From Candidatus Poribacteria bacterium (GTDB taxonomy: Bacteria > Poribacteria > WGA-4E > JAJDTR01), in the NCBI GenBank assembly GCA_965222225.1, contig CBDCTK010000002.1:3904001-3968000 (forward strand): a stretch of 64,000 nucleotides of DNA. The letters are read 5' to 3'. Below the pieces are notes generated by a model. It was not told the origin of the DNA. It saw nothing but the letters and a program-made list of their open reading frames with translations, and did no database searches. A program made the position numbers and the translations under genes. Positions 2,283 through 61,724 of this stretch are shown in pieces. The first letter of the stretch is position 1. Each line of letters begins with the position of its first letter.

Positions 2283-2335
2283 ATCAACTGAGATCAAGGG
2301 AGCGCGATAGGGATCCCAAGGCGATAGGCAATCTC
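2283..2335 (+). mobile_element. Micro-element nest (short 25-bp form inside another copy)
   Basis: ATCAACTGAG[ATCAAGGGAGCGCGATAGGGATCCC]AAGGCGATAGGCAATCTC. Confidence 0.75.
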
Positions 2336-2368
2336 GTTAGCCTTTTCCGCGCCCCACATACAACTCGG

Positions 2369-5300
2369 CTACTTCCGTATCAACATCTTCCGTGTCGCCG
2401 CAAATTCACCCGCCCTCAGCGTATAGAAATATAAACCGCTGGCGATCGACTCGCCACGCCCATTCCGACCATCCCAATACGTTGCACGTCCTAGGCTCTG
2501 ATACATGCCCGCCGCTTGATGCCCCACATCAAGACGTCGCACTAGCTGTCCCCCGATGTCATAGATGGTCAGTGCGATCTCTGCCGGAGCTGCCAACTGG
2601 TACGCTATCCAGGTCTCAGGATTGAAGGGATTCGGATAATTGGGCAGGAGTGCCGTCTCTGACGGGATCATCGAGGCTGACAACACCTCGAGGTTGGCTA
2701 TGGCTTGTCGGAAGGCGATTGAGCCGTCGTCTGCGAGTCGTGCTTGGGCAATCCACGTCTCTATTGTCTTGGATTCTAACCCATGCGCTGGCGGCGCGGC
2801 AGTTCCGCCAATTCCCTGAGCGACGAGAGTGAGGTCGAATATATTTACAACCCCATCGCCATTAACATCCACGCTCGAGTTGGCGGGCACACTTCTCCCT
2901 AACTGCCGCGCAACCAGAATCAGATCCAAAATACTGACAACTCCATCACGATTTACATCCCCGGTCATCAGCCGTTCCTCCACAATGAAAGTGATTTCAT
3001 GCGGCCCCGCCGGGATGTTTTCACCAGTGAAAGAGCCAAGCTGGAAGTTACCCAGCGCCACTGCTGTTTCGCCTTCAGACTTCGCCTTAAACCTTACCTG
3101 AAGCAGGGGACCGCTGCCACTGACGCCACTGTCGGAAAGCAGCGCAGCCTTGAGTCCCATGATTTTTCCATTTGCGTTATCAATACGCCCAGCCTGAAAG
3201 AAGACTGTTCCTCCATCCGTCTTCAGGAAATCGCCTTCGCTCGTGTCAATCGCTTCAAGGACGAAAGAATCAAAGGCGATATCAAACTGCCACCCCGCCA
3301 AGTCGAACACATTTTCTGCTCGGATGTCGAGGCTAAAGGTATCGCCGATGTGAATTGGCGTCTCGGAAAAGGCGTAGCCGACGCCAGTTCCCACCGTATA
3401 TTCAGTGTTGGGCTCAAATCCAAAGAAAGCGCCGGTGTCGAAACTAGGCGAGAAAACCGCAACTAACAAAACATTTTTCCCCTGCTGAAGCGTAACCGGG
3501 AAAAAATCATTGTAATCAAGCTCCAGCGCCCTGTCACCCAGCACCTCGTAGACCAAATCTCCGTTGAGCCAGACCTTTAGTCCTTCGTCGTTGCCAACGT
3601 GCATCCTTGTCTTCTGTTCCCGTGGCGAATAGAGGGATATAGTGCCGTAGATAACGCCGTCGCTCAGCATACCTCCGATGTTGTTCCGATCCGTAGACGG
3701 GAGTTGGTGGGAGGTCCACACGTCATCGCCAACTGATTTTCCCACTGTTGCCCCCTGTGTGGCGACGTCCACCTCTGTCACCGTACCGTCACTGGCTTCT
3801 GATAGTAAATCGGTACTGCTATCCAGTATGGTGTCCGGTAACAAGACCCATAACCAAGGTCCCCCAATTTTTGGACCTCCTTGTGGGAAACCCGGATTGT
3901 CGTACGTCCCAAGGAATTTCATATTGGGACGTAACCCGTCTAGAGGAGAAAGATCGGAGATTTCGTTCACGGAGACATCCAGCCATGTTAAATTGGATAA
4001 ACCGGCGAGCGCCGATATGTCTGAGATTATGTTGTTGTGGAGGTTCAACCACTTCAAGTTGGATAACCCTGCAAGGGATGATATATCCGATATATCATTA
4101 CGTGAAAAATCTAGCCGTTTCAAATCGGTTAATCCCGCAAGGGGTGAAATATCCGCTACGTCGTTGCCGAATAGATACAGTTCTTCTAGGCCCGTCAAGC
4201 CCGCCAAAGGGGTAAGATCCGATATATCTCCACCGGGAAGAATAAATGCCTCAGTTTTGTCAATCCTGCCAAGGGCGATAAATCGGATGCGGATGTGCCC
4301 ATGTGAATGAGTTCCAGGTTGACTAATCCGGCAAGCGGCGATAGATCGCGTATGTTAGAGTGACTCACAAAGAGTTGCTCTAACTTGGGTAGCCCAGCAA
4401 GGGGTGTAAGGTCCTCTACTCCATGAAGAGCTAAAAAAGTTAGATTAACCAATCTGGAAAGCTGTTTCGCGTCATGAATAACGGAAGGTGAATCGATGAA
4501 GTCAATATCTAGAGCTTTTAACTGGGTTAGTCCTGCTATCGGAGAGAGATCGGACACCTTAGACCCACTACCATTTATGCTAGACAGATTGGTCGCAAAC
4601 TGAAGACCGGTTAAATCGCGGATATCTTGGCCCTCTATTATGCTCAAGAAAGTCAATCCTTCCATGTCTTCCACGGTTATCGGGGCATTGGGACTTTTGC
4701 CAAGTTCTTCAGCAATGGCAGTGCGTAGGTTCGGATCCGGGATATAAACCTGCGTACCCGGTATTACATCCGGCTGCGTTATTACCGGGGGCTCTCCAAC
4801 TTGCCCCGGGTAATCCAGCGCATACATCACGTCTCGAAAACTCGATGTCCAGGTGTCCCGTTGCACGCTCCCGTTCTCACCCTCTAACGCCAACAAACCT
4901 ATGTTCTGTAGTCCCGTGTTCTCACGAACCTTTTCGAGAAAGACTTCGGTTTCTAAACCAACCACGGCAGCGGCGTATGCGGCGTCTACCGGTCCCTGAA
5001 ACGCCTCATGGAAACGTGAAATCGGCTCAACCCCGCCAATCGCACCGCCCGTCTCTACAAGCGCTTCCCGATAGCGCTCCATGTCGCCACCCACACGAGC
5101 GTCCATGTCCGACTTTTCAACGTAGAGTCGCAACGCCTGCGCTTTGTTGTAAGGCGGGTTGGTATTGCTCTCAATCACGGAACGTACCTGGTCTTCAAGG
5201 GTCTTCATTCCCTCCGTATGACAACCTATACAGGAAAGTCCGTTGCACACCGTCGGGTCGCTGGCTGCGGGGTTGGAAACAATGTTTATCGGCGCCTCGT

Positions 5301-6501
5301 CTAGACGGAAACTGGACGCATTGACAAGGTAGTAGCCCTGCAACCCGTTTGGCAGATTGAAGATTGCCTCACCGCCATCGTGCGTGAAATTAAGCGGGTG
5401 GGTAAAGATGTTCTGTGCCCCGACACTCCCGGCAAAGTCGTAGCTTTTCCAGTACGCCCCGTATCGAGAGGTGTGCCGTTCCACTACCCGGTTGTTATTG
5501 GAGACTCCCGAATTGTTGAAACCCGCCCGCAAGACGCGAACCCCGGGTGCATTAATCAGATTACGGGCGACATCAACCTCCAGTCGGGTTTCCAACTCCC
5601 TATCCGTTAGTGGCAGCGAAAGCAGGTCGTGATACAGCGGTGGGGTGGATGCCGTTGCAATGAACCAGTCGATATGAACCGACGGCACATCGGTCTTCAT
5701 CTGTGTCTGCAACCGTCCAAGTTGATTCCGCAGGGCGGACTGTGCGGATGCATCAAAGGCGATGTGGTAGGGGTATTCCTCTTCTATCTTCGTCCAGGCA
5801 TCGTTGACATCCCATTCGTAGTGTCGGAGGTCGATGTAGAAGATGGTTACTTGCGAGTCGATTGGGATTGGGTTGATGACTGTTACTCCCCATGAGAGGC
5901 TGTTAACCAATTTATAGAGTGCTTTGCGGTACCCACCAAGTAACTCCGGAGTCCTAGAAACCCCTATCGCGCTCCCTATTCGGTCGCTTGATCCAGCGTT
6001 ATGGAGATGGGTAAGTGTGAAGTGGCGGGCAAACGCTGAAAGTGTGTTGAGGTGCGTGTCAATGCTCTTGAGTATTTCGCCGAGCGAGATAAACCGGCTA
6101 TTGGTCGTGGGAGTCGTCGCCCAATCGGGTGCGCCGGCTACTATCCAGCGTCGAATGGTGTCAATCGACTGAGGGGGCAACTGGGGCTGTCCGAACGGCA
6201 TCTGTGCGCCGCTTTCGGTGGGGCCTAGCAGCCGTTTATACAGCTCGGAGGCATTCGGATTCCCCGGAACAACGGTGCCCCCTCCGATAAGCTCGCTGTG
6301 TTCCATCAGGAGTGTTTCTCGATAAGCGCCGTCGGGACCGTGGCAGATGAGGCAGCTCCCCTCAAAAATGGCATAGGTATCTTGGGCTAACTGCGATTGG
6401 GCGGACACATGTTGAGAGCCTACGATGAAGGTCAATAGGTAGATAAATGTAACGCGATTCTGAGCACGAACCGGAGAAGAGATAGAATGACGTTTAAGCA
6501 T
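2369..6501 (-). pseudogene. Large secreted protein (c-type cytochrome domains, LRR, cohesin-like, dockerin, FlgD/T9SS-like Ig tail), split by a 1-nt frameshift near 4240
   Basis: ORFs 4195-6501 and 2369-4207 overlap, and the LRR register continues across the shift (LRHL.LPGGDISDLTPLAGL). CxxCH motifs CLICH and CIGCH; dockerin GDVNRDGVVSILDL; C-terminal NYPNPFNPET...ATRKMLIRK. Could be a sequencing error. Confidence 0.8.
5956..5992 (-). mobile_element. Micro-element inserted in frame in a CDS
   Basis: Minus strand ATCAAGCGACCGAATAGGGAGCGCGATAGGGGTTTCT, translated as SSDRIGSAIGVS. Confidence 0.85.
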
Positions 6502-6715
6502 AGGGAGTATCTCCTTTATGAATAACCAATTTCATGTCGGGAAAGATGGGGGCACTTCAAGGTGACAACTTGCCCTACCTTTACCTAGAATCTTCCAAAA
6601 TATACTATACCATAAACTATAGCGGGTCAAGCAAATTGGTTTGATGATTGTAAATCTCTATGACAAACCAATCTGCATAGACTGACTCCATCGGCGTTTC
6701 TATCCGTTCTCTATA

Positions 6716-7489: not shown

Positions 7490-7701
7490 CTTTACTTTAT
7501 TAAGGCATCATTAAGGCATCGATTCCCTAAATTTTTATCTTTGAATCTTTCGACACCAATTTGTCGTTCTTATCCAAGGATATTTGGCAAGGGATTCTAA
7601 ACCTTGTCACACACCGCGTAATTGCAACCGAATGAGTTAAGAAAATAACGATACAGTCACACACGATTTCATGCTTGAAGATATTGCCGAGGTAGGGAAA
7701 T

Positions 7702-12269: not shown

Positions 12270-12516
12270 TAGCTCGACTTTGTAAAAAAGTACAATTCTG
12301 AATTGCCATCTTGTAGGGTGCGATCAAAGGAATGAATAATGACTGCGATAGAGATTCCCTGCGCACCAGCCTCTAAAAGCCCCAGAGTGGGATCAAGGGA
12401 GCGAATAGTGAGTGCGATAGAAACCTGACAGGTATGTAGCAGCCAACAATGAAAACATGAAAAAACTTTCTCAAAATCTCAAAAATGGCTTTGCCACCGA
12501 TTCTTCAAACAGGTTC
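12270..12516 (+). repeat. MITE/REP composite carrying two micro-element insertions (12323-12358, 12392-12426)
   Basis: Aligns with uninterrupted copies at 53759-53983 and 61105-61311; right end TTCAAACAGGTTC. Confidence 0.75.
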
Positions 12517-15515: not shown

Positions 15516-15687
15516 GAGCCTGTTTGAAAAGTACATTTGTAGGGTGCGATCGACTGACTGATTAAGGAAGGCGATAGTAAATCTTGATAGAGATCCCGCA
15601 GGTACGTAGCAGACAACAATAACAACATGAAAAAACTTCCTACCAATGACCAAGAATGGCTTTGCTACCAATTATTCAATCAGGCTC
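15516..15687. mobile_element. MITE family 1 (TIR GAGCCTGTTTGAA, TAA duplication) containing a micro-element at 15549-15597
   Basis: TAA-GAGCCTGTTTGAA...TTCAATCAGGCTC-TAA. Confidence 0.75.
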
Positions 15688-19956: not shown

Positions 19957-20010
19957 ATCAAACGAGTGGATAGCGAGTGCGATAGCTAATCCCGCGCGAT
20001 AGAAGATTCC
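19957..20010 (+). mobile_element. Micro-element plus an extra right end
   Basis: ATCAAACGAGTGGATAGCGAGTGCGATAGCTAATCCC-GCGCGATAGAAGATTCC. Confidence 0.85.
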
Positions 20011-21701: not shown

Positions 21702-21993
21702 TAACCCAAATTGCCACCCCTCTCGTAGGTCGGGATCAAGCGAGCAATCAAGCGACTGGATAAGGAGCGCGATAGAGTTCCCGACAGGTCGGTTGTGTCT
21801 CGCGTAGATGGTCCAAATTGATGCAGCCGCCTAGCTCTCGCTTTGTGATGTTTTCGATTGGGACGTAATCCAAGTGTCGCCCCTCTGGGGCTTTAGCGTG
21901 TGGCTAATCCACGTTTCTATACACCTGTCACCCCGCTGGGGCTTTGATGTCCGGATAATACATAAATACTTAGCGAATAAACTACTTAGGTTA
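21702..21993. repeat. MITE family 2-like composite with GCCCC..GGGGC palindromes and a micro-element nest (21735-21782)
   Basis: Left end TAACCCAAATTGCCAC; internal content similar to 42429-42721. Confidence 0.6.
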
Positions 21994-28246: not shown

Positions 28247-28377
28247 TTATCATGCATATATTAGCAATCAATGATCGGTATGATTGTGTGCGGCATAGTA
28301 GTAGGGAATGCAGATCTGCGTTCCCCACAATCGTGAAGGGACGTACGTCCTATAATAAATGCACGTATTGACATTCA

Positions 28378-28644
28378 GAGCTTGTTTGAAAATTCATTTC
28401 GGGAAGAGCTTTTGCCCTGAAACCGATCAAATGAGCGAATAGCGAATGCGATAGAAATCCCTATTTTCTTGAAAACTCCGTTTCTTTCTTGCGCAAACCC
28501 GTAGGGTGCGCGCTGGGATCAAGGGAGCGAATAGTGAGTGCGATAGAAATCCTGACAGGTGTATAGCAGGCGACCACAAAAGCATGAAAAAGCCGCGCCC
28601 ACAGTGACCGAAATTGCTTTGCCACCTATTATTCAAACAGGCTC
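28378..28644. mobile_element. MITE family 1 (TCA duplication) with two micro-element insertions (28426-28461, 28518-28553)
   Basis: TCA-GAGCTTGTTTGAA...TTCAAACAGGCTC-TCA; otherwise nearly identical to 53759-53983. Confidence 0.85.
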
Positions 28645-28734
28645 TCAAGTAATACCATTTCGTTTGAATAGCAGTGCATAGAGTGAAATAATTATCTCGT
28701 TAGGACTTACGCGGTGGAGCACCCGGTAGGAGCG

Positions 28735-28769
28735 ATCAAACGAATGGATAACGAGTGCGATAGAGATCC
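28735..28769 (+). mobile_element. Micro-element inside a GTAGGAGCG REP
   Basis: GTAGGAGCG[ATCAAACGAATGGATAACGAGTGCGATAGAGATCC]GTCTCTCGCTCGCGAC. Confidence 0.85.
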
Positions 28770-29054
28770 GTCTCTCGCTCGCGACAGGAGGTCGCGAGGA
28801 AAGTCCGCTCCGACAGAAGACGCGCAATAAATTGCGCTACTACAAATCAAACCAAGCAAATCCAACACGTGTAATTCTTAATTGCAATGACTATAAGAGT
28901 TCCCGGTTAGGCATGCACCGGCATCCGTAGGGGTTGGGTCTACCAACCCTTGTGCCTCCCTCGAATTACGCACACGCCTAGCATAAATGTCAACAGAACC
29001 TAATACGGTATCTGACAAAAATTAACAATCTCTGGCTTCCAGAAAGGAAAAATA

Positions 29055-30359: not shown

Positions 30360-30438
30360 GTAGGGTGGGCACTGCCCACCGTCTTTTGTAGGGTGCACAC
30401 TGCGATCAAGGGAATTGAAATTGATTGCGATAGAGACT
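30360..30438 (+). repeat. GTAG REPs with a divergent micro-element at 30405
   Basis: GTAGGGTGCACACTGCG[ATCAAGGGAATTGAAATTGATTGCGATAGAGAC]. Confidence 0.7.
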
Positions 30439-30656
30439 ATTTTGTCCCGCATTGGAAAGATGTACCATTACTCGTAGGCCAAGTTCCGTAGACGGGGCAT
30501 CTTGCCCCGTATTGGAAAAACTTGATTGACACCTCTAATGCCCGGCAAATTAAGACAAATCGTATTCCTAGCTTCCAACCCGCCCGTTTGGAGGGCGAAT
30601 CCGATTCCCGCTGACGATATCGCCAATCATCCGACAGCATACACAGCGCCTCTTTT

Positions 30657-31604: not shown

Positions 31605-31651
31605 ATCAAGGAAGATCAAGCGAATGTATATAGTGAATGCGATAGATGTCT
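31605..31651 (+). mobile_element. Micro-element nest; continues at 32452-32483 after the IS1 insertion
   Basis: GTAGTAGCG-ATCAAGGAAG-ATCAAGCGAATGTATATAGTGAATGCGATAGATGTCT. Confidence 0.75.
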
Positions 31652-32451
31652 GAGAGTGTTTACACAAAGATAGATAAGGCAATCTGCTGATACTGACGGA
31701 AGACCTCTTGGTCGGTCAAAGCAGTCCATAACTTCATGGCATTGTCCACCATCTCAAGTTTCTTGGATACTATTTTGGTGCGGCGTGTGAATCGTCCAAG
31801 ATGATGGCGTGTATTGCTGTTATCACGTTCGACTGTTGCTGTCCCTGATTTCCCGATGTGATGACGCTCCGCAGGAAGTACCTTGGCAAACGCTTCCCAA
31901 TTGCCAGTGTAATACTGGCAATCACTTAAGTGTTTCACTTTGTCGAATAGCCGTCTGAAGGTATGAGCATCACGACCACCGATAACCCAGGCAACGGTTT
32001 TGCCTGTTTCACGAGAAACTGCTTTGTGAATCCATCTTTTGTTTTTTTTGACCCGATAAAATGCCACATCTCATCAAATTCCAATTCACGGGTGTTGATT
32101 GGAATCTCAGGCTCCGACAACAGGGCTGCTTCCTTTGCAAGCCATTTTTGAACAGTACTTGGCGATACATTAAACAAGTTGGCAATAGTGCCATAAGATG
32201 CTTTTGCAAGGGAGTAAAGAATTACTGCAAAAGCACGCTTGATGGTGGTTTGAGGGTTGGTTCTCTCGTCTCCCTCAACGAAATTATAACCGCACGTTTT
32301 ACAACGGTATCGCTGTTTGGAACGAACGAATCCGTTTTTCGTGACTTCCGAACTATGACAGTTCTTACAGTTTGACATAATGTCTCCTTCCTGACCTTTC
32401 TGGTTAGTTAGAAGAATTATATCATAAATCTATCTATATGGCAATACTCTC
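31652..32451 (-). mobile_element. IS1-family insertion sequence, 800 bp
   Basis: Imperfect TIRs GAGAGTGTTTAC / GAGAGTATTGCC; 8-bp direct repeat AGATGTCT at 31644-31651 and 32452-32459. Confidence 0.92.
31660..32378 (-). CDS. IS1-family transposase InsAB (programmed -1 frameshift)
   Basis: InsA zinc ribbon CKNC...YRCKTC plus HTH; ELEFDEMWHFI; A8C slippery run at ~32041-32049; InsB VERDNSNTRHHLGRFTRRT. Confidence 0.9.
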
Positions 32452-32573: not shown

Positions 32574-32750
32574 ATCAACTGAGCGATCAAGCGACTGGAT
32601 AAGGATCAAACGAGTGGATAGCGAGTGATCAACTGACTGGATAAGGAAGGCGATAGTGAATCCTGATAGCTAATCCCGCGCGATAGAGTTCCTATAGCGA
32701 TGCGATAGCTAATCCCATAGTGAGTGCGATAGAAATCCCATAGAGATCTC
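32574..32750 (+). mobile_element. Four-deep nested micro-element array
   Basis: Left ends at 32574, 32586, 32605, 32628; six right ends. Confidence 0.88.
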
Positions 32751-32812: not shown

Positions 32813-35452
32813 TCAGAATTGATTCGCCACAAACACCAAATCAAACACATTAATGACCCCATCCCCATTCACGTCCCCCTTCAAACTATCCGTCCCGAAC
32901 CTCTGTGCCACCAGCGTCAAATCCAAAATATTCACCACCCCATCCCCGTACACATCCGCTGGGTTCTTCGGCTTCACCCGCAAATACATCTCCCCGTCAA
33001 GATTTGGTAACGCGTGCTGCGTGTTCACCCATCCGCTGGCGACACCCTGCACCTCCTCCGGCAACGTGTGACCTGTGGCGCCCCGCTGTGATTGTACACC
33101 GCCCAACCATTCGTGAATTCGCGAATGTAAAGCCCTTCTGTCTCTTGGTACAACTGACGTTTCGGACCGACGGGACGCCCAAGATCCGCGCCCCAGAAAT
33201 CGTACCAGTAATGGTGATGACCTCCGCCAGTTTGGAATAATACGTAACCGTCGGAGTGTGTGAGACTCAGCGTGGTAAACGTTCGCATCCAGCGGAGGTT
33301 CGTTGGACTATCAGGTGGTTCTGTAGGGACGCTCCAGCCCTCAAGACTGTTAATGTGCGGTTCTCTCAAGTTAGTTTCTAACCAGAACAGAGAACTTTCT
33401 ATTTCAGCGAGCAGCGCATCCAAATGATTTGCAGGCGCCTCACTCGGCACTAATGTTTCCATAAAGCTGCCGTTGAGATACTTACCGGTCTTGGGGATTT
33501 TGCGACGATTGGTGTTTCCAATGATGAGGAAGTTAGGCCTCGTTTCAGCGCGGATGCGTTCCAGTATGTTTATTTTCGCTTCGATTTCAGTTTCGTATCC
33601 AACATATTCGGTGCGCGGATTGCGGGTAACTAAAAGAGGTGAATTGTCGTTCCACCAGTCAATCATGATGCCATCGAACAAACCACATTTGGAGACGGCT
33701 ACGGCTTGGGCGACCATTCGATCCTGAAAGCCGGGGAGTGTAAAATTAATAAATGCGTCGCCTTCCCCAGCGCCAACCAGGTTGCCGGAGGCGTCGCGCA
33801 GCCAATACGGCCAGTCGGGGGGAAATTCATGAGGCGGTTCGGCGCGAAATGCAAGCTGTACAAGAAAGACCATATTGGGGTTGTGGGCGAGAAATGCGTC
33901 GCGATTTTCTATAGCCTAGCTAGGACCGTAGGGGGTAACCATTTGGATAGTGTCCGACGTTTCGCGGAAGTATGTCTCAAACCGCGGAACGCTAAACCAC
34001 AAATCGTGAGTTGCGAGGTTTTCAATATCTGATAATTCAGGTCGGTTCAAGGTGCGAATCCAACCTGGGCCGCCCCATGCAGCGAACAGTGATGGGAACG
34101 TTCTATTCTCCAATCGAGGTTGCAGTGGCACGGGCGGCAGGTCACAGGTCTGGTCGTAAAAGTAATGGGTAAGCGGGAGGTCGTCCAGCGGGCTGTGGTC
34201 TACAATTTGGTTCTGGTGGATTGCCAAGTGTTCGAGTCTTGTTAGTCCGGCGAGAGGTCGGACGTCGGAAATACGATTGCCGTGCACTTCCAGGTATTCT
34301 AACTGAGTCAACGCGGCGAGAGCGTTGATATCATGAATGTCATTGTATTCGAGATTGAGCCTTTGAAGTTTCGATAGGCGTGCTAGGGGGCGATGTTGAT
34401 AATCTCGCAGTCGGCTGCTTTAAGTGTGCTTAAATTTGTTAGATGCCCTATCGGTGTGATGTCGGAAAATGAATTGATGGATATGTTGAGCCATGTGAGA
34501 TTGATGGCGAATTCTAAACCGGTGAGATCTGTTATCTGACTATTTGCTGCAGCCAACCGTGTTAATTGCCGCATAAATGCGCGATTGACAAGGACGCCAT
34601 GGGGAGCTTGAGAGTTTCTCGGATAGCGGCTCTCAGGTTGGGGTCGGGGATATCGACGACCGGACTGTTCGCGTCGAATATGAGGTTGTTTTGAGTGTCA
34701 AGATATTCTAAATTTGTGAGATTTTCAAGTGGAGTAACATCCGTAATATCGTTATTGCCCAGCAGTAGTTTCGTTAACGCCGTAAGGTTGACGAGCGGGC
34801 TAACATCAACAATGCGGTTGTCCTTAACTTCTAACCATTCCAATTCAGTCAAATTCGCCAGTGGACTGACATCGGTAATCTGGTTTGAGTGCAATCGCAA
34901 CTTCTTTAGTTGACTAAAATTCGCCAGTGGTTTGATGTCTGTAATTGCGTTTCGTTGGAGATAAAGCCCGGTCAGTGCTGTTAGGTTTGCCAATGGACTG
35001 ATGTCGGAAATACGGCAATCCTGCGCAGCCAAGCCTCTCAATTTTGTAAGATTCGCCAGCGGACTAATGTCGGAGATTGGAGTCACTTGGATAAATAGTT
35101 CCTCCAGTGTCGTGAGTCCTGCTATCGGCGTAAGTTCAGTTATCGGGTTGCTCGGTATGTGAAGCCAAGTAAGGCTTACGGCGAATTCCAAACCGGTGAG
35201 GTCTGTTATCCCTCGGTTGGCGGCGTCTAAGCGTTGCAATCGCCTCATAAATGCAGTCGTAACGGGTGCGTCAGGACGGAGATTCAGCGCTTCTCGCACC
35301 GCGGCGCGCAGATTCGGGTCGGGCATGTGGACCGGATCTTCTATCGCATTCGCTATCTGCTCGCTTGATGGCTGGGCGTAAGTATCGGCGCAGAGTGCCG
35401 TCAATGCCAGTGCGATTATCGCGAATATAGTATAGGTCTTTCGTTTCTGCAT
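32813..35452 (-). pseudogene. LRR + putative glycoside-hydrolase-like (GHL15-like) + dockerin secreted protein, disrupted
   Basis: ORF pieces 34562-35512, 34383-34574, 33916-34311, 33025-33873 and 32813-33106 are colinear; frameshifts near 34602, 34388, 33068 and an in-frame TAG at 33916. The GHL15 call is from motif resemblance only. Confidence 0.8.
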
Positions 35453-35619
35453 AGGATAAGTCTCCTTATTCGGATGTTCCGACCACAGCAGCCACAAACA
35501 TCTCTGTTTCAAATAACGTCCACAATTCTGCCGCGGTAGATATCTTGAGATGAACGAAGGCGTCTTCGTCCGCTTTGCACCGCCTCAAATCCGTGAAATC
35601 CTTTAATCCGTTTAATCCG

Positions 35620-35655
35620 ATCAACTGAGCGATTAGCGAAGGCGATAGAAATCCT
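35620..35655 (+). mobile_element. Single micro-element
   Basis: ATCAACTGAGCGATTAGCGAAGGCGATAGAAATCCT. Confidence 0.85.
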
Positions 35656-35670: not shown

Positions 35671-37575
35671 TTAAAACGCATTCGCCACAAACACCAAATC
35701 AAACACATTGACAACCCCATCCCCATTCACGTCTCCCTTCAAACTATCCGTTCCAAACCCCTGAGCCACCAGCGTCAAGTCCAAGATATTCACCACCCCG
35801 CCCCCGTTCACATCCGCCGGATTCTTCGGCTTTACCCGCAAATACATCTCCCCGTCAAGGTTCGGTAGTGCGTGCTCCGTGTTTACCAAACCGCTGGCGA
35901 CGCCCTGTACCTCCTCCGACAACGTGATGACCTGCGCCTACCCACTGTGATTGTAGACTGCCCAACCGTTGGTAAATTCGCGGATGTAAAGTCCTGGGAT
36001 CTCTATCGCACTCGCTATTCGCTCCCTAGATCGGTTCTCGTAGAGTTGACCTTTTTCTTCGCTGACCGGACGACCGAGGTCGGCATCCCAGAAATCGTAC
36101 CAGTAATGCTCGTGCTGAATGCCGTCGTTAAACAAGACGTAACCGTCGGAATGCGTGAGGCCGAATGCAGTGAAAGCGCGCATCCAGCGTAAATTCGCCG
36201 GGCTATCCGGCGGTCCCGTGGGAATACCCCATCCTTCCAAGCCGTTAATCTGCGGTTCTCTGAGGTTGGCTTCCAACCAGAGCAAAGCGCTCTCTATCTG
36301 GGCTAACCCCGCTTCTAGACGCTCTCCGGTTTTATCGTGCGGCACCCCCGTTTCCATAAACCCGCCGTTGATATGCTCGCCTGTCCTCGGTATTTTGCGG
36401 TCGTTGGTGTTGCCCATTATCAATGGGCCCGGACGAGCCTCGGCGCGGATGCGCTCAAGAATGTTGCTCCGAGCGCGTTGCTCGACAATCGTGGCGTCCT
36501 CATCTTCCGCCCAATGGTCAAAAAGAACGCCGTCGTACAAACCGCACCTTGACACGGCGAGCGCTCGGTTAATGATTATCTCCTAGGCGACGGGGTGTGT
36601 AAAATCGACTTTGTAAGCACCAGGCAGGGAAGATTGCGATCAGGCTTGCCGTCAGCGCCTTTTACCCAATAAGGCGAGTCCTCCGGCACGTTTTCGAGAT
36701 AATCTCTTTTCATTGGAATACTTACAATGAAAACCATATCCGGATTAATCGCTGTATACTCAGCACGCAGTTGCTCACCCCGTCCGGGAACGCCCCGTAC
36801 TTCCCACGTTTCGCCCGTGCAAAAAAAAACGCTGGTCAAATATTAGTGCCGATATATACAAATCGTGTTGAGCGTATTTCTCCACATTACTAAGATGCGG
36901 TTGATTGAGAGTCCCGGCCCATGCGGCAAACACTGAGGGATAATTTCTGCTTTTCAACCTGGATTCGAGTTCAAATGGAGGCGTATCACAGACCTGATCG
37001 TAGGTAAAACGGGTAAGCGACAGACCGTCAAGCGGAGAGCGATCCATAATAAAATTTCCCTCAATGGCGAGTTTCCGTAATCCGGTCAAACCGCGTAACG
37101 CTTCTACATCGGCTATTTGGTTGTCGCGAAGCAATAACAAGCGCAGAGAAGTTAATCCGACAAGCGGAGAAACATCTTTGATTGCGTTTCTGTCCAACCC
37201 CAACTCTTCCAAACTGTGAAGGTTGGCGAGCGGGGATATATCGGAAATGCTGTTTCTTGCCAAATCCAAGAGCCGTATATTGGGAGCATATTGCAACCCT
37301 TCAAGATTCTCAATCTCTCTACCGGGAGCGTCCAACCGCTCAAGTCGCCGCAAGGCAACGACCGTGATACGGTCGGGATTCGCTCCGCTCGCCTCGACGA
37401 CGACAGCCTTTAGATTTGGATCGGGAAAATGAACGACTTGGGCATGAACCCAAGAGGCAACCAGTAGAAAGGCAGTGACCAGTAGCCAGCGGCTAGTGGT
37501 CAGTAAAGACAAAGACGAGTTTCTGTTTTTCACTGACCACTGCTTTTTGGTGGTGGCTAAAACGCGATGTAACAT
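35671..37575 (-). pseudogene. Second LRR + GH-like + dockerin paralog, disrupted
   Basis: Pieces 36775-37575, 36576-36839, 35938-36555, 35671-35922; frameshift at the A9 run (~36821-36829) and near 36630; in-frame TAG at ~36583 and 35938. Confidence 0.8.
35996..36031 (-). mobile_element. Micro-element inserted in frame in a CDS
   Basis: Minus strand ATCTAGGGAGCGAATAGCGAGTGCGATAGAGATCCC, read as (R)SRERIASAIEIP. Confidence 0.88.
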
Positions 37576-40281: not shown

Positions 40282-40450
40282 ATCAACCGAGCGGATAGCG
40301 AGGGCGATAGAGATCCCTCAAGCGACTGGATAACGATCAACTGAGTGGTTAACGAAGGATCAAAGGAGCGGATAGCGACTGCGATAGCCAATCCCATAGA
40401 AGATCCCGTGCGATACAGTTCCCTTCAACCGAGTGAATAAATCAAGGGAA
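40282..40450 (+). mobile_element. Micro-element array: tandem copy, three-deep nest and partial left ends
   Basis: Left ends at 40282, 40318, 40336, 40359, 40425. Confidence 0.88.
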
Positions 40451-41677: not shown

Positions 41678-41845
41678 ATAGAGATCCCATAGAACTCCCT
41701 TCAACCAAGACGTAGGAGGGATCAAGCGAATGGATAATGAGTGCGATAGTAAATCCCACACGACAGAGATCCCCTCAAGCGGGTGAATAACGAGTAGGAT
41801 GAACTATCGCCTTCACTATTCGTTCAGTTGATCGATAGAAATCTT
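41678..41845. mobile_element. Micro-element array with one copy nested in inverted orientation (41796-41832)
   Basis: Full + copy at 41721-41757; minus copy ATCAACTGAACGAATAGTGAAGGCGATAGTTCATCCT. Confidence 0.85.
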
Positions 41846-42428: not shown

Positions 42429-42721
42429 AGCCCCAGAGGGGATCGAGCGAGCGAATAGCAAGTGCGATAGAGATCCCGACAGGGCTGGTTGTGTCTCGGA
42501 TGTATCGTCCGAATTAAAGACGAATTTTCGATTATAGGCGGATTTGGGCGAATCGAAATTTAACCGAGAATGCTACAACCGCCACCGAGCTAGCCACTTT
42601 CCGATTTTTTCTAGTTGCTACCTAAGTGTCGCCCCTCTGGGGCTTTAGCGTGCTTACGATTGGCGTTGCTATACACCTTCCGGGATTTCTATCGCACTCG
42701 TTTGATCCCGCGCTGGGGCTT
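42429..42721. repeat. Repeat with GCCCC..GGGGC palindromes carrying micro-elements at 42442-42477 (+) and 42682-42706 (-, short form)
   Basis: CCCCAGAGGGG[36 bp]GACAGG; minus strand GGG[ATCAAACGAGTGCGATAGAAATCCC]GGAAGG. Confidence 0.75.
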
Positions 42722-46148: not shown

Positions 46149-46221
46149 ATCAAGCGAATGGCTAATGAGTGCGATAGTAAATCCTGATAGCAAGTCTTGA
46201 TAGCGATCCCATAGAAATCTT
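46149..46221 (+). mobile_element. Micro-element array at the left border of the putative cargo
   Basis: One left end and four right ends; 52 of 55 nt identical to 48476-48530. Confidence 0.85.
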
Positions 46222-48452: not shown

Positions 48453-48547
48453 ATCAACTGAATGGACAGTGGAGGATCAAGCGAATGGCTAATGAGTGCA
48501 ATTGTAAATCCTGATAGAAAGTCTTGATAGAACTCCCATAGAATCCC
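48453..48547 (+). mobile_element. Micro-element array at the right border of the putative cargo
   Basis: ATCAACTGAATGGACAGTGGAGG[ATCAAGCGAATGGCTAATGAG...]. Confidence 0.85.
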
Positions 48548-50838: not shown

Positions 50839-50954
50839 GAGATTTCTATCAGGATCTGCTATCGGGATTAGCTATCGCGGTCGCTATCCGCTCCCTTGAT
50901 CTCCTTATACAGTCGCTTGATCACAGTAGATCGCTCGTTGTCCACTCGTTTGAT
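50839..50954 (-). mobile_element. Nested micro-element array on the minus strand
   Basis: Four left ends and three right ends; innermost copy ATCAAGGGAGCGGATAGCGACCGCGATAGCTAATCCC. Confidence 0.85.
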
Positions 50955-53758: not shown

Positions 53759-53983
53759 GAGCCTGTTTGAAAATTCATTTCGGGTAGAACTTTTGCCCTG
53801 AAACCGAGTATTTTCTTGAAAACTCCGTTTCTTTCTTGCGCAATCCCGTAGGGTGCGCACTGCGCACCAGCCTTTGTAAGCCCCAGCGGGGCGATAGGTG
53901 TATAGCAGGCGACCACAAAAGCATGAAAAAGCCGCACCCAAAGTGACCGAAATTGCTTTGTCACCTATTATTCAAACGGGATT
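53759..53983. mobile_element. MITE family 1, uninterrupted reference copy (TTA duplication)
   Basis: TTA-GAGCCTGTTTGAA...TTCAAACGGGATT-TTA; contains GTAGGGTGCGCACTGCGCACC and GCCCCAGCGGGGC. Confidence 0.8.
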
Positions 53984-55603: not shown

Positions 55604-55804
55604 ACTGGGTTTGTAACGGCGGCCTTCAATCGGAAAATACACCGTGCGTATACGGGTGCGGCTTGGATATGTCTATCCAAGCAGAGCGCGGTTGCTGAAT
55701 AGAACGCAATCCTCACCCGCCATTTATTGAAACCGGACGATGGGGGTTACGTTCTCTATTGTGCAATCCATGCGTTGTTTCAGATTTAACCGGAGGCAGG
55801 GAAC

Positions 55805-56296: not shown

Positions 56297-56492
56297 TTGG
56301 GGTTCGCCGGATTGAAACGCACTTGGCAAATCGGCTGACTCGCTAATGCGCCGAGGGTTTTCACATACTGGCGGGATAGCGTTCTGTTGCCGTCCCCTCT
56401 CGAAAACTTCCAAATCACCCAACGATACCTCTGTATTTGCACGCAATGGTCTGCCCACCGTCCCTCCACCCAATCCGAATCCGGACAAAACA

Positions 56493-57956
56493 GTGAAGAC
56501 GTCAACCCGTCGTCATCCATCCACCTTCAATAGTCGCAGCCTGCGGTTACGCTCACTCTATGTATGCCTCGGTGTGTGGTTGTGCTGTTCTTCCTTCTCG
56601 ACACAAGCCGATTCGCGCCCCGAGATTGGAGTAAGAGCCCTCGGCTTGAGTGGCGCGTTTATCAGTAATGCCAACGGGTCAACCGGTGCGCTATGGAATC
56701 CGGCGGGGCTCGCCAGTCTACAACACGGAAGTCTGGTCTACGACCTCTCCCAAGGCGCACTCTCGTTTGCGTTACCCCTCAGCCGATACGGCACATTGGG
56801 GCTTAGTCTGGTCGATCTCAATGGTGCGGACCGTTTCTTCATAGAAAAACCCAACAACCCGATTGGTACATTTGAGTTTGGAAACAACCAAGCCATACTT
56901 TCTTACGCTGCAAGGATCCGAAGATGGCAAATCGGCGCCAATTTTGGTTATAATCGGGCACCCTACCACGGCAGTCTGTGGATTCCGAGTTATGACTTGG
57001 GGATTGTCGGACGACTACATCCACATTGGAGGGTCGGGGCGAGCATTCGCGACATAGCTGGCGTCGTCATTACGGATGGCGACGGCATATCTCTTCAAAG
57101 TTTCGACCAACAGTTTGCCATAGGCGGCACGTGGACGCCCATTCGACAGTTGCGACTCAATAGTGCATTCAACGTCACGAACAAGGCAATGGCGATGGGC
57201 GCCGAGGTTGGGACACACGACATCGCGTTCCGGTTTGGATCAGTCTTCGATTTCGTCGCGCCGGAGCCAACGCCTCACTGGAGCCTAGGGCTTACCCTGA
57301 GTCGATGGAGCAAGCAGCTCAATTACGCCTACGTGACTCGCCCGGATCCCAATTCCAAACACCTCGTTTCGATTGGATGGACATTCGGAGGAAAACCTCA
57401 ACAGCAGCGCAAACAACAGCCGGAGCGCCGTATTTGGCCTCAGCCAGACTCGTCTGACCGGAAAAAGGGGAAGAGTAACGCCTCGATTCGACAGCTTGCG
57501 GCTCGCCATAATGTCGAGTTTGAGTTGATGCTCGCCGTGATTCGAGTGGAGTCGAACTTCAACCCCAACGCGGTTTCCAGTTCGGGGGCGGTTGGGTTAA
57601 TGCAGTTGATGCCGGGAACTGCGCGGGATCTCGGTCTTAACGTGCCCAAATATAGTAATGTCCTAAAGCCAACCCACGACGAGCGGGTAGACGAGCGTTT
57701 CGATCCACGCAAGAATATGGAGGCGGGGGTTGCGTACTTGGCAACCCAGCTAAAAAGATACGACGGCAGCTACGTTCGTACTTTGGCTGCGTATTTTGTC
57801 GGTCCCGCCAAAGTACGGGAGAGCGGCTCAATACCGCAAAGAGCCGATCGATATGCCGGCAAAGTGTTGAAACGCTATTACGAGTATAAGTCGGGCTCCG
57901 CGCTGAAGCATGCGGCACTTGCACAGTTGGAAAATCTACTTGCAAACCGCCGCTAG
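56493..57956 (+). CDS. PorV/FadL-like beta-barrel fused to a lytic transglycosylase (SLT) domain
   Basis: RALGLSGAF...WNPAGLA; VIRVESNFNPNAVSSSGAVGLMQLMP...LAAY. Start uncertain (ORF open from 56346). Confidence 0.75.
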   Translation: MKTSTRRHPSTFNSRSLRLRSLYVCLGVWLCCSSFSTQADSRPEIGVRALGLSGAFISNANGSTGALWNPAGLASLQHGSLVYDLSQGALSFALPLSRYGTLGLSLVDLNGADRFFIEKPNNPIGTFEFGNNQAILSYAARIRRWQIGANFGYNRAPYHGSLWIPSYDLGIVGRLHPHWRVGASIRDIAGVVITDGDGISLQSFDQQFAIGGTWTPIRQLRLNSAFNVTNKAMAMGAEVGTHDIAFRFGSVFDFVAPEPTPHWSLGLTLSRWSKQLNYAYVTRPDPNSKHLVSIGWTFGGKPQQQRKQQPERRIWPQPDSSDRKKGKSNASIRQLAARHNVEFELMLAVIRVESNFNPNAVSSSGAVGLMQLMPGTARDLGLNVPKYSNVLKPTHDERVDERFDPRKNMEAGVAYLATQLKRYDGSYVRTLAAYFVGPAKVRESGSIPQRADRYAGKVLKRYYEYKSGSALKHAALAQLENLLANRR

Positions 57957-57968
57957 TTGTGGTAGATT

Positions 57969-58082
57969 TCAAGCGATCCAGGGAATGGATAATGACCGCG
58001 ATAGAACTCCCATAGAAATCCCGTGCGATAGAGATCCTAGGGCGATAGTAAATCCCTACAGAGATCCCCTCAACCGAGCGGC
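57969..58082 (+). mobile_element. Micro-element array
   Basis: Full copy ATCCAGGGAATGGATAATGACCGCGATAGAACTCCC at 57976, four more right ends, partial left ends. Confidence 0.82.
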
Positions 58083-58169
58083 ACGTTTCAGGATATCCCA
58101 ATCCATAGACCCTACTTTCACCCCCGATTCAAAATAGATGAATCGGTCAACTCAAAATTAGGCACGTTA

Positions 58170-58780: not shown

Positions 58781-58855
58781 GGGCGGGAATGACAGGGCTA
58801 GTGTCGCGGCAATTGGGCAGGAACTGATCGCCAGAACATCGAAACTCGGTTTCCC

Positions 58856-59707
58856 TCATCTCAGCGGTGGAAGATTATCCCACTCGCAGTCGAGGCAGAA
58901 GTATCTTCCCACGCCTATTTTTTGAATCGGTCCCCCACATTTCGGACATTCCGTCTGTTTCTCCTTCTCCTTCTCCTTTTTCACTTCGTCTGGTGAGAAC
59001 ATTAGAAGTTGCTCGCCTTCCATGGCGCGTTCGGATTCTGCGGCAACACTGCTCTCAAGTGTGTCAATGATATCTTGAGCGTGAAGATTGAGCGGAGGCG
59101 GCGTGTTCGTGACCAAATCGATGAAATCGCTGCGATACACATTAATCGCACGCGACTCAACTGCCTGCCGCATAAAGAGCGTATATTTGTTCGGGGCAAT
59201 CAAGTAGGCTTCCGTATCTTGAAGTTGTGTCTTGCGGCTCACGACAAGTTCATAGTCACCGTATGTCAGGCAGTTTCCAGCGCTCGCGTTATAGATTTCA
59301 AACACTTCACGAGAACGATTCGGGGACATGAGAAGGCAGTATAGACGTTGAGGATATCGATTGAGGCGGTTCATCGGCAGAAAAATGTCGGGCTGAGCGA
59401 TGCGCTGTAAGAACCCGATAAACGCTTCATAGGCAAACTCCATTGCTTCATTCAATACTTCAGTGTCCAAACTCGCGCTCGACCTGTCCGCAAACAGAGG
59501 AAGAAACTCTCGCGAGTGCGCGTGGATGTCAACGTCGACATCAACGTTCTGTTGCTCGCTGCGCGCCGTAATTCGGCACAGGCGCTCGACCGGGTGATGA
59601 GTAACTTTTATGGTGAATGGCAGCATGGAGTTACTGATAAGACTAATAGAAGAATGGCTGGAAAATTTCGGTGATGCTTTCCTTAAGCTAATGCGATAGT
59701 GTATCAT
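58856..59707 (-). CDS. Hypothetical protein with a C-terminal zinc ribbon
   Basis: CPKC...CLDC; start may be 59626. Confidence 0.7.
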   Translation of the reverse strand: MIHYRISLRKASPKFSSHSSISLISNSMLPFTIKVTHHPVERLCRITARSEQQNVDVDVDIHAHSREFLPLFADRSSASLDTEVLNEAMEFAYEAFIGFLQRIAQPDIFLPMNRLNRYPQRLYCLLMSPNRSREVFEIYNASAGNCLTYGDYELVVSRKTQLQDTEAYLIAPNKYTLFMRQAVESRAINVYRSDFIDLVTNTPPPLNLHAQDIIDTLESSVAAESERAMEGEQLLMFSPDEVKKEKEKEKQTECPKCGGPIQKIGVGRYFCLDCEWDNLPPLR

Positions 59708-59884
59708 AGCGTGTCCAGCGTGTCCAGAAAAACCCTATCTCGCATCAGGATAACTGTGCGGCGTGGTCGGGACAGATTGTCCTTGACACTGTTGTCCGGT
59801 CAAACTATAATGCCTACCCAATAATGAAACTCACGGTTATTGACCCGCTTTGATGGAGTCGATAACCGACGGAGGGATTGAAAC

Positions 59885-61099
59885 ATGCCGAAAACGGCTT
59901 GCTTGGTAGGGACATTGGATACGAAGGGTCCGGAATTTGAGTTTCTTAAGGAGCGCGTAGAGGCGAATAACGTCGCAACATTCGTCATCAACACAGGGGT
60001 TCTGGGAGATCCGTATTTTGAACCGAGTGTGTCCGCCGAGCAAGTGGCAGAGGCGGGTGGGACATCGCTGACCACACTCAGGAACGAGAGTGATCGGGGC
60101 AATAGCGTCGCCGCAATGGCGAACGGAGCCGCTCAAATTGTCGAGCGACTCAACGACGATGGAGTAATTGATGGTATCATTTCGCTCGGCGGATCCGCCG
60201 GAACAACCATCGGGACGACCGCAATGCGCGCGCTGTCCGTCGGCGTTCCGAAGTTGATGGTCTCTACGTTAGCCTCCGGCGACACTAGTCCCTATGTGGA
60301 CACGAAAGACATCGCGATGATGTATTCCGTCGTGGACATCGCGGGCGTCAATCGTCTCTCGCGCCAAATTCTGACGAACGCCGCGGGGGCGATTGCCGGT
60401 ATGATCAACGCAGTGGTGCCCGTAGCCGATGATAAACCCTTAATCGCCGCGACAATGTTTGGGGTGACAACGGCATGTGTGACCAAGGCACGCGAGATTC
60501 TTGAGGCGGCTGGGTATGAAGTTCTTGTTTTCCATGCAACGGGCACCGGCGGACGGGCAATGGAAGATTTGGTCCGGGGCGGATTTATCGTGGGCGTGCT
60601 TGATGTCACAACGACCGAGCTTGCCGATGAGTTGGTTGGCGGGGTGTTGAGCGCGGGACAGGACCGCCTTGAAGCCGCGGGGAATCAGGGAATTCCGCAG
60701 GTTATCGCCCCGGGAGCGTTAGATATGGTGAATTTCGGTCCCCCCGATACCGTGCCCGAGAAGTTTAAGGACAGGAAGTTTTACCAACACAACCCGACAA
60801 TCACCCTCATGCGCACCACCGTGGATGAGAACGCCGAGCTAGGGAAAATCATGGCGCAAAAACTTGGTCGGGCAAAGGGACCGACAACCGTGATAATACC
60901 CAAGCGGGGAGTCTCCGCAATCGACGCTCAAGGACAGCCCTTCGATTCGCCGGAAGCCAGGGCGGCGTGGACTCAGAACTTGAAGGCGAACGTGGCGGAC
61001 AATGTCACGGTGATTGAAATGGACAACAACATAAACGATGACGCCTTCGCCACACGACTTGCCGAAACATTGTTGCAAAACTTAAAGCACCAGAGTTGA
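59885..61099 (+). CDS. Tm-1-like ATP-binding protein (UPF0261)
   Basis: GTLDTKG, LGGSAGT, TMFGVTT, FHATGTGG, PGALDMVNFG. Confidence 0.92.
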   Translation: MPKTACLVGTLDTKGPEFEFLKERVEANNVATFVINTGVLGDPYFEPSVSAEQVAEAGGTSLTTLRNESDRGNSVAAMANGAAQIVERLNDDGVIDGIISLGGSAGTTIGTTAMRALSVGVPKLMVSTLASGDTSPYVDTKDIAMMYSVVDIAGVNRLSRQILTNAAGAIAGMINAVVPVADDKPLIAATMFGVTTACVTKAREILEAAGYEVLVFHATGTGGRAMEDLVRGGFIVGVLDVTTTELADELVGGVLSAGQDRLEAAGNQGIPQVIAPGALDMVNFGPPDTVPEKFKDRKFYQHNPTITLMRTTVDENAELGKIMAQKLGRAKGPTTVIIPKRGVSAIDAQGQPFDSPEARAAWTQNLKANVADNVTVIEMDNNINDDAFATRLAETLLQNLKHQS

Positions 61100-61104
61100 G
61101 TTCT

Positions 61105-61474
61105 TAGCTCGACTTTGTACATTTGTAGGGTGGGCACCGTCCACCATTTCTTGTAGGGTGCGCACTGCGCACCAGCCTTTGTGAGCCCAAGCGGGGCGGA
61201 AGGTGTGTAGAAACGGCGATTCACTACTCATCATAAGCCCCAGAGGGGCGACAGGTAGCAACAACTCAAATACCCAAGAATCGCTTTGTTACCTCTTTTT
61301 CAAACAGGGTCTTAAGAAACCTTCGTGGTGTACTATCTAACCCGAGTTGCCACCTTTGTAGCACAATCTGTTAGATTGTGCTTGTGATGCGCAAACTGAC
61401 AGTTTGCGCCACGAAATCTCCGCAATTAATGAACTGTTCTCAATTAAAAACGGTGATGCATGTCTAAAATCTTG
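61105..61474. repeat. Adjacent uninterrupted MITE/REP composites (family 1-like at 61105-61311; family 2 at 61340-61474)
   Basis: Match 12270-12516 and 15357-15490. Confidence 0.7.
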
Positions 61475-61613
61475 GGCCCTTCAGAGTTAAATGTGGAAAT
61501 GAAATTAACTTAGGGCTTACGCAGTGACGCATCCAAAGGATTGTAGGAGCGATCTCCGAATCGCGACCTCCTATCGCGAGCAAAACTCGCTCCTACACAA
61601 GACGCGCAATAAA

Positions 61614-61724
61614 GGGAATTCTATCGATCAACCGACTGGATAAGGAGGGATCAAGCGTATGAATAATGAGTGCGATAGAACTCCGATAGTAAATCCCGTA
61701 CGATAGAGTTCCGGTAAAAATCCT
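61614..61724 (+). mobile_element. Micro-element nest inserted into an inverted right end
   Basis: GGGAATTCTATCG, then left ends at 61627 and 61650, then four right ends. Confidence 0.82.

Follow-up and report, generated by a model that had tools for sequence, protein, structure and literature searches.

How does a sequence of about 36 nucleotides that encodes nothing come to lie again and again in one stretch of a bacterial genome? The question is raised by 64 kb of Candidatus Poribacteria DNA, hereafter the window, which spans C2:3904001-3968000 of a 5.70 Mb genome assembly (G000). An earlier note, made from the letters of the window alone, had described a ~36-bp non-coding repeat at 25 loci, had taken it for a candidate new minimal mobile element, and had proposed that an HUH/Y1 transposase or a reverse transcriptase moves it. 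The repeat belongs to a family of non-autonomous insertion elements, 36-37 nt long, which is highly active and confined to certain lineages and whose propagation depends on a small irregular hairpin in one strand. Its insertions are many and recent, and lie in intergenic DNA, in the hairpins of repetitive extragenic palindromic (REP) sequences, in an IS3 transposase gene and in its own copies.

Sequence and abundance of the element

The element is non-coding, 36-37 nt long, and reads in order ATCAA, NN-GA-NN, G-NNN-A, NN-GA-NN, GCGATAG and a tail of 7-8 nt. Its core was searched for with the pattern ATCNANNGANNGNNNANNGANNGCGATAG, either strictly or with up to two mismatches allowed. The window contains 24 matches with at most two mismatches, against a mean of 0.02 in dinucleotide-preserving shuffles, none of 100 of which reached 24; the dispersed element described earlier is thus real. 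Most of the 25 listed loci are copies that match the pattern, while the others (2283, 18601, 21735, 31605, 32574, 41678, 42682, 48453, 50839, 57969 and 61614) are outer or partial shells of nested insertions, and two copies had been missed, at 35333-35369 (-) and 40359-40395 (+). A scan of the whole genome, as the note had proposed, gave 731 exact matches and 1065 with up to two mismatches; the reversed pattern, used as a control, gave none.

A per-position profile of the 731 exact copies delimits a sharply bounded unit that runs from A0 to about C35, with zero information beyond. Upstream, the information is close to zero as far as position -5 and climbs over positions -4 to -2 (A, G, C/G); the profile falls off steeply at -2 and at +36. 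A G stands at position -1 in 92% of these copies and in 22 of the 24 window copies, in agreement with the claim that insertion is almost always 3' of a G. There are 314 distinct 29-mers among the exact copies, the commonest being present 47 times. The tail comprises 7 nt (RRWTCCY) or 8 nt (NRRATCCY) in G000, and reads TYTT in a second genus that carries the element. The longer tail is found in 77 of the 123 copies with a CT/AG stem and the shorter one in most copies of the other variants; tail class partly follows stem variant, and the tail is thus inherited together with the element.

No described family was recognised in the earlier note, and Rfam gave no match at gathering thresholds across the whole window; at E <= 1, a 421-nt stretch with three copies gave a single match, at chance level (E 0.093). 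The copies are dispersed rather than set in a regular array with unique spacers, as CRISPR repeats would be, and arrays occur only as head-to-tail series of 38-nt period that lack spacers. These lie at G000 C2:1578260-1578560 and 1584370-1584450; their unit is the 29-nt core followed by TCTTGTAGG, and the stems differ between units of one regular array.

Filled and empty sites

Paralogous pairs were collected by seeking the 14-nt left flank of each copy elsewhere in the genome, without the element next to it, and then matching the right flank. Over this large copy set, the net gain at filled sites is 34-36 nt and the 5' junction always falls exactly after the target G. The commonest exchanges are 36 nt inserted for 2 removed (31 cases), 36 for 1 (18 cases) and 37 for 1 (17 cases). 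Those of 34 or 35 nt for none (11 cases each) are ambiguous, as the C-rich end of the tail overlaps C's of the target. The 3' junction is fuzzy, and a single REP site yields both ...AGATCCC|CTGCG and ...AGATC|CACTGCG. Target bases are never duplicated and 0-3 of them are lost, close to the loss of 1-3 bases proposed before. The two empty sites cited in the earlier note, AAACCG-AG-TATTTT (53801) and GTAGGGTGCG-CA-CTGCGCACC (53848), exist and match the sites filled at 28426 and 12323.

Insertions into the element's own G^CGATAG provide the cleanest series of junctions, because the target sequence is known. Here a 7-nt tail is followed by ATAG, with CG lost, in 26 cases, an 8-nt tail by GATAG, with the C lost or changed, in 13 cases, and CGATAG is intact in 7 cases. 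Nests are up to four deep and both orientations occur; some copies sit within REP hairpins and some within copies of their own family.

Orthologous sites were compared over 400 kb of a sister species in the window's genus (G005), whose genes are 83-98% identical to those of G000. The 84 collinear intergenic gaps contain 36 cores in G000 and 25 in G005, with a core in both species in only 4 gaps, and copy turnover between these two species of one genus is near-complete. At one clean site, within an IS3-type OrfB gene that is disrupted by the insertion, 36 nt of G000 stand where G005 has 2 nt, and at another locus extra nested copies were gained in G000. Empty sites thus occur in a relative, as the earlier note had suggested looking for, and together with the paralogous pairs they bear out its description of a non-autonomous, non-coding insertion element. 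At window 28333-29021, a 689-nt intergenic region, in which three 36-nt copies lie together with REPs, has a counterpart of 23 nt at G005 C1:4016507-4016529; repeats are behind large swings in intergenic length. Contigs from four sequencing runs break at repeats; where a joint leaves out one copy (28426>28462, 32627>32665), no more than 23-32 nt support it on either side and the depth exceeds that of the genome, so that paralogues may be its source.

A hairpin in one strand

The first NN of the element is complementary to the fourth and the second to the third, which defines an internal hairpin. The earlier note, right about the absence of terminal inverted repeats, had overlooked it. The structure is irregular, with two 2-bp helices flanking a tandem G.A/A.G step and a G-NNN-A loop. 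All four variable pairs are canonical in 640 of the 731 exact copies and in 18 of the 24 window copies. Covariation was measured on 80 distinct copies from the window, G005 and G012, a complete genome of the second genus. Paired cells amount to 93.8%, against 60.3% in shuffles, and changes on both sides of a pair are found in 130 cells, against 44.8; neither value was reached in any of 500 shuffles, and controls with a slid register were 22-57% paired. The 2924 stem cells of the exact copies comprise 2516 Watson-Crick pairs, 308 G.T, 33 A.C and 67 others, and the prevalence of G.T over A.C identifies ATCAA...GCGATAG as the folding strand. Stem letters vary between copies yet remain complementary, and selection to fold acts on the ATCAA-reading strand. 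When folded with RNA energy parameters, 2 of 4 top strands and 0 of 2 bottom strands adopt the covarying hairpin as their minimum-energy structure, to which the invariant ATC adds an outer helix by pairing with the GAT in GCGATAG.

Target sites, placement and orientation

The preferred target context is G-S-G^C/A, the A of ATCAA standing directly after the target G. In G000, the GTAG-tagged REP1 site GTAGGGTGCG^ is filled 50 times and empty 132 times, GTAGGAGCG^ sites 31 and 96 times, the REP2 foot CCCCnnnGGGG^CGAYAGG (a loose pattern) 118 and 99 times, and the element's own G^CGATAG 115 and 807 times; these counts do not represent independent events, because filled composite repeats can themselves be copied. 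REP2 and the element have a hairpin-G^CGAYAG module in common, and both are hit exactly at the caret. A further context, GGGTGCG, precedes 39 of the 731 exact copies. The composite host repeat of ~65 nt (window 53848-53908, 12310-12460) is built of the GTAG-tagged hairpin GGTGCGCAnTGCGCACC and the hairpin GCCCCAGnGGGGC followed by CGAYAGGTRTRTAGCAG. The tail was considered as a guide to the target, its ATCCC being complementary to GGG^AT at the 5' junction, and was rejected, since a test on 655 copies found no covariation of its letters with the target at -1, -2 or -3 (chi-square p = 0.47, 0.24 and 0.17).

According to crude calls of open reading frames (ORFs), 906 of the 1062 copies on the main contig are intergenic, in a genome that is 82% genic. 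Copies show no preference for the direction of co-directional flanking genes (326 same, 284 opposite) or for convergent (146) versus divergent (150) intergenic regions. By GC skew in 50-kb bins, the folding strand lies on the C-rich strand for 692 copies and on the G-rich strand for 370, a replication-strand bias matched by the GTAG strand of REP1 (277 vs 137). The G-rich strand would be the leading strand, a reading consistent with the gene counts that favour it (2393 vs 1959).

Distribution

A scan across all species returned at least 102 stretches with the element, all of them, among the matches listed, from metagenome-assembled genomes of Candidatus Poribacteria. In a survey of 176 Poribacteria species genomes, high copy numbers were confined to two genera: the window's genus, with 459-1094 exact matches in 10 of 10 genomes, and the second genus, from another family, with 142-166 in 4 of 4. 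The complete genomes G012 and G021 of this second genus have 173 and 150 pattern matches; many of the G012 copies are identical, and stems of the second genus include variants found in G000. A covariance model applied to 151 genomes gave the same distribution as the pattern scan. Other genomes with matches have 1-5 exact copies each, or 17 in G066. The copies in G065, G066, G124 and G125 are on few small contigs and were probably mis-binned, and the single locus of G060 is a nested pair between two secreted-protein genes. Viral contigs (IMG/VR) gave no match. The window strain was found in runs of nine studies, some of which are labelled sponge metagenome.

How the element may move

As the element encodes nothing, it would move in trans. 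The reading that we favour, at somewhat less than even confidence, is that of a hairpin element moved as a single strand by a nuclease of the HUH/Y1 kind, which includes IS200 transposases and REP-associated tyrosine transposases (RAYTs). A Y1 enzyme acting in trans is suggested by the single-strand hairpin, by the lack of terminal inverted repeats (TIRs) and target site duplications (TSDs), and by insertion 3' of a short motif at hairpin feet. Single-stranded DNA is likelier than RNA, given the replication-strand bias, the lack of any bias in transcription direction and the absence of reverse transcriptase where the element is plainly recent. The element would be recognised as a folded single strand, most likely in DNA exposed at replication, and would be cut and rejoined by the hairpin-reading nuclease. 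Insertion would place the A of ATCAA after the target G, without duplication, and remove 0-3 bases at the less exact 3' junction.

Only one concrete candidate for the enzyme stands out, an IS200-like Y1_Tnp with the motif YIKNQEAHH, encoded at G000 C2:3080254-3080728. In three Poribacteria genera this gene is flanked by inverted REP2 hairpins, GCCCCAGnGGGG-CGACAGGTG, in a REPtron-like layout, and it is a candidate because these hairpins carry the hairpin-G^CGAYAG module, the most frequent insertion site of the element. The gene resembles subclass 1.2 of Quentin et al. 2018, members of which, in the accessible part of that study, are described as generally devoid of terminal hairpin structures (PMC6006769); the YIKNQEAHH gene has them.

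Several observations weigh against a Y1 enzyme. Of 41 relatives, 34 have Y1_Tnp (PF01797), whether or not they carry the element; it is present in all 10 genomes of the window's genus, with six hits in G000. No Y1 clade examined tracks the element, each being widespread in element-free genera and flanked by its own REP family. The YCYENPVR clade of RAYTs, whose genes are each flanked by their own GTAG REP family, was rejected as the specific mover, as it occurs in 90 of the 176 Poribacteria genomes and is missing from the high-copy genomes G002, G004 and G008. REP2 was likewise rejected as a marker that tracks the element, since 38 of the 61 genomes sampled from various genera contain it and the second genus has it in only 2 of 4, and an intact YIKNQEAHH-type gene was not found in 2 of the 4 genomes of the latter. 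No copy flanks a conserved gene in the fashion of an autonomous parent: the 383 inter-copy segments share only leucine-rich-repeat (LRR) genes and ordinary insertion sequence (IS) elements, and such a parent, sought as two copies around a conserved gene, was rejected. If GC skew is read in the usual way, the C-rich strand, on which most copies have their folding strand, would be the leading-strand template, contrary to what holds for IS608-type elements. Y1 transposition as known from other systems is precise and relies on a hairpin at either end, whereas the present element has a single hairpin and loses target bases at a ragged 3' joint. Finally, DNA nearest-neighbour parameters do not predict the covarying hairpin, which is weak evidence against a DNA hairpin because these parameters give tandem G.A steps no reward.

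The 36-nt copies near RAYT or Y1 genes lie inside the REPs of those genes (GTAG REPs or REP2). The window's genus has several RAYT paralogues, each with its own GTAG REP family; one RAYT of G000 is encoded at C2:2563961-2564705.

It is possible, although we consider it unlikely, that Y1 enzymes serve only their own REPs and that an enzyme of an unrecognised kind moves the element, be it a nuclease or recombinase of a new type or a templated insertion, coupled to repair, at nicks that follow a G. No tested gene family tracks the element, and an exact 5' junction combined with a fuzzy 3' junction and the loss of 0-3 bases fits no described reaction of HUH, DDE or serine/tyrosine recombinase enzymes. 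The nearest analogues, the small dispersed repeats (SDRs) of cyanobacteria, are likewise without a known mover. Nothing positive points to such an enzyme: a gene-similarity scan between G000 and G012, which covered 2.0 of the 4.9 Mb (41%) of G012, returned, above 87% identity, no more than transposases of the IS5/IS3 types, a ferredoxin-like protein of 152 aa and large proteins that form a smooth, highly conserved run. The multi-copy genes of G000 comprise IS1595-, IS701/IS4-, IS1-, IS5- and IS3-type transposases, LRR proteins and beta-propeller proteins, named by reading their sequences, with only IS1 and Y1 checked against Pfam; they were rejected as movers, none being a natural partner for a 36-nt hairpin. 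Y2/IS91-type HUH genes (PF04986) were found in 0 of 5 genomes, a result of little weight since control genomes were silent too.

A route in which the ATCAA strand is copied into RNA and then reverse-transcribed at a nick in the target, in the manner of target-primed reverse transcription, is improbable. Wobble of the G.U type is nine times as common as A.C, the hairpin with its outer ATC/GAT helix is the minimum-energy RNA fold for 2 of 4 top and 0 of 2 bottom strands, and metatranscriptome runs contain 29-69% of the words of a 9.9 kb stretch, all of which would suit an RNA intermediate. Small target deletions with one sharp and one fuzzy junction also recall R2-type insertion. Against this route, the reverse transcriptase domain RVT_1 was found in only 1 of 5 genomes searched, weakly and in G000, and not in G012 or G021, where pattern matches are numerous and, in G012, many copies are identical. 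The only reverse transcriptase-like hit in G000, a 670-aa ORF with a YVDD motif (C2:4499560-4501572), looks from its motifs like an abortive infection (Abi)-type defence enzyme. Gene-orientation bias is lacking while replication-strand bias is present, and there is no poly-A or other hallmark of reverse transcription. Of the movers named in the earlier note, Y1 genes are present without tracking the element, and RVT_1 was not found in the two genomes of the second genus that were searched.

The element might instead be mainly a site useful to the host (for protein binding, supercoiling, termination or mRNA stability, as proposed for REPs) that spreads mostly as a passenger of larger repeats and through recombination, which appears very improbable. 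In its favour, copies of a larger composite repeat (12392, 28518) carry one and the same variant in an identical position, structure is conserved while stem sequence is free, and the 38-nt-period arrays exist; what speaks against it are insertions into unique DNA and into the IS3 gene, nests four deep in both orientations, indifference to gene orientation and to convergent or divergent regions, and almost complete turnover between two congeneric species. An assembly or adapter artefact has next to no probability, with hundreds of copies in 14 independent assemblies, several of them single-contig chromosomes, and copies inside contigs of four runs from four studies, such as the 30405 copy inside a 2908-nt contig.

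Copies and neighbouring features in the window

Table 1. Copies of the element and empty target sites in the window, with loci of the YIKNQEAHH gene.
Position	Strand	Feature	Context
5957..5992	-	full copy; pattern match	within long ORF (4195..6501, -)
12323..12358	+	full copy	in REP1 hairpin GTAGGGTGCG^..CTGCGCACC
12392..12427	+	full copy	3' foot of REP2 hairpin (CCCCAGAGTGGG^)
15549..15585	+	full copy	GTAGGGTGCG^ site
19957..19993	+	full copy	after TTGTAGAG^; aligned G005 intergenic region without copy there (flanks loosely alignable)
21735..21782	+	outer 5' remnant (21735-21746) and full inner copy (21747-21782)	
28426..28461	+	full copy	filled counterpart of empty site 53801
28518..28553	+	full copy	REP2-type site
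28735..28770	+	full copy	after GTAGGAGCG^
30405..30440	+	degenerate copy, 1 mismatch, 3/4 pairs	
31605..31656	+	nested or partial copies	interrupted by IS1-family insertion sequence (~31649-32451)
32574..32720	+	four-deep nest	three split 5' halves, complete inner copy 32628-32664, then stacked 3' halves
35333..35369	-	copy, 1 mismatch	within ORF 34562..35512 (-)
35620..35655	+	full copy	
35996..36031	-	full copy	
40282..40317	+	full copy	aligned G005 intergenic region without copy
40359..40395	+	full copy	nested in another; aligned G005 intergenic region without copy
41721..41757	+	full copy	
41796..41832	-	full copy	in another copy, opposite orientation, after CTATCG^
42442..42477	+	copy, 1 mismatch	REP2-type site
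46149..46185	+	full copy	
48453..48512	+	outer 5' half and inner copy (2 mismatches)	
50839..50900	-	nest	full copy 50864-50900, then stacked 3' halves
57976..58011	+	full copy	nested in another
61614..61685	+	nest	full inner copy 61650-61685
53801..53814	+	empty target AAACCG^AG-TATTTT	paralogue of site filled at 28426
53848..53868	+	empty REP1 hairpin	GTAGGGTGCG^CACTGCGCACC
53880..53908	+	empty REP2 hairpin	GCCCCAGCGGGG^CGATAGGTGTATAGCAG, with hairpin-G^CGAYAG module common to element
G000 C2:3080254-3080728		YIKNQEAHH gene with flanking hairpins	further loci L169, L171, L177, L183, L184, L186, L187

The IS1-family sequence at 31649-32451 consists of an InsA-like zinc-finger/HTH ORF and a DDE_Tnp_IS1 ORF. 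It interrupts a 36-nt copy, where the short sequence GATGTCT appears to have been duplicated, and has 8 further copies in G000, 7 at 98-99% identity and 1 at 93%. The copies at 5957-5992 and 35333-35369 lie on the coding strand of long LRR ORFs, and 2 of 3 frames of the element are open. Internalin-like LRR proteins are encoded at 2369-6501 and 34562-35512, one with a type IX secretion sorting tail, and a PorV-like protein at 56346-57956. Together these proteins would place the host in a secretion world of the Fibrobacteres-Chlorobi-Bacteroidetes (FCB)-like type, and they fit a sponge symbiont rich in eukaryote-like repeat proteins.

Significance

Repeats this small are usually taken as immobile or as by-products, and here hundreds of insertions are resolved to the single base. 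The target rule is defined, after a G and often at a hairpin foot, compensatory changes reveal a structural requirement, and self-nesting amounts to many independent experiments on a known target sequence. Together these features open the movement of 20-40 nt elements, among them SDRs and REP-like stem-loops without a tag, to direct testing. Copies of the element also cause short-read assemblies of these sponge symbionts to break and swell their intergenic DNA, which matters for the comparative genomics of Poribacteria.

Comparison with known systems

Miniature inverted-repeat transposable elements (MITEs) and Rickettsia palindromic elements are, like this one, small non-autonomous repeats with some copies inside ORFs. 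The present element differs in having no TIR (its ends are ATCAA and ATCCY) and no target duplication, and in being several times shorter. With the IS200/IS605 family and palindrome-associated transposable elements (PATEs) it shares the lack of TIR and TSD, insertion 3' of a short motif and a hairpin on one strand. IS608 keeps a guide just 5' of its hairpin foot, and the ATCAA block lies at a like position. The element differs from IS200/IS605 in its one hairpin instead of two, its 36 nt instead of hundreds, its imprecise 3' junction with bases lost, a strand bias opposite to the lagging-strand-template expectation, and the lack of a Y1 gene that tracks it.

REPs and REPINs resemble the element as imperfect palindromes of 20-40 nt with a stem-loop, here a covarying hairpin, in high copy number and mostly intergenic (906/1062). 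The replication-strand bias equals that of the GTAG REPs of G000, and RAYT genes are present. The defining tag of REPs is given, in the accessible part of the source, as GTAG or CGTC at one foot (PMC3733652). The element lacks this tag, its feet being ATCAA (5') and GCGATAG (3'), and its copies neither flank a cognate RAYT as in a REPtron nor form inverted doublets. Since it inserts into REPs, it behaves as a parasite of them.

The closest likenesses are untagged REP-like stem-loops and SDR4-6 of Nostocaceae; the latter are also very small non-coding repeats that insert cleanly without duplication, the mover being known for neither. The SDRs of Elhai et al. 2008 (Genome Res 18:1484) are reportedly 21-27 nt long, and are said to nest and to share a predicted hairpin. 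The element is longer (36-37 nt against that range), belongs to the phylum Poribacteria, has a G.A-containing hairpin and parasitises REPs. SDR5, as the available text of PMC4390886 has it, inserts precisely after GCG in GCG^ATCGC, between the third and fourth letters of GCGATCGC; 92% of the Poribacteria copies similarly follow a G, and 39 of 731 follow GGGTGCG. Directed cutting at HIP1 sites is offered there only as a possible partial explanation of SDR5 placement (PMC4390886), and HIP1 is not enriched in G000 (120 sites). No SDR was found outside Nostocaceae according to the part of PMC5861425 available, and our literature search found neither a description of dispersed repeats in Poribacteria nor an SDR outside Nostocaceae.

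Very small mobile repeats, namely the cyanobacterial SDRs, and REP-like stem-loops are thus already described, as far as the consulted parts of these papers go (PMC5861425, PMC4390886, PMC3733652). The element is mobile as the earlier note had claimed, and to call it a candidate new minimal mobile element was an overstatement: we regard it as a new family or variant within this described kind, not a categorically new one, set apart from SDRs by their descriptions only. It is possible, if doubtful, that it forms an independent lineage of very small mobile repeats, the second after the SDRs, and that it uses a reaction other than the classical HUH one, with a single irregular G.A-containing hairpin inserted after a G through an exact 5' joint and a ragged 3' joint at which target bases are deleted; it would then be a hyperparasite of REP hairpins and of itself. 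If so, its ~500-1100 copies per genome, many of them identical, and the almost total replacement of copies between sister species would make it the best system at hand in which to seek the machinery of such mini-elements.

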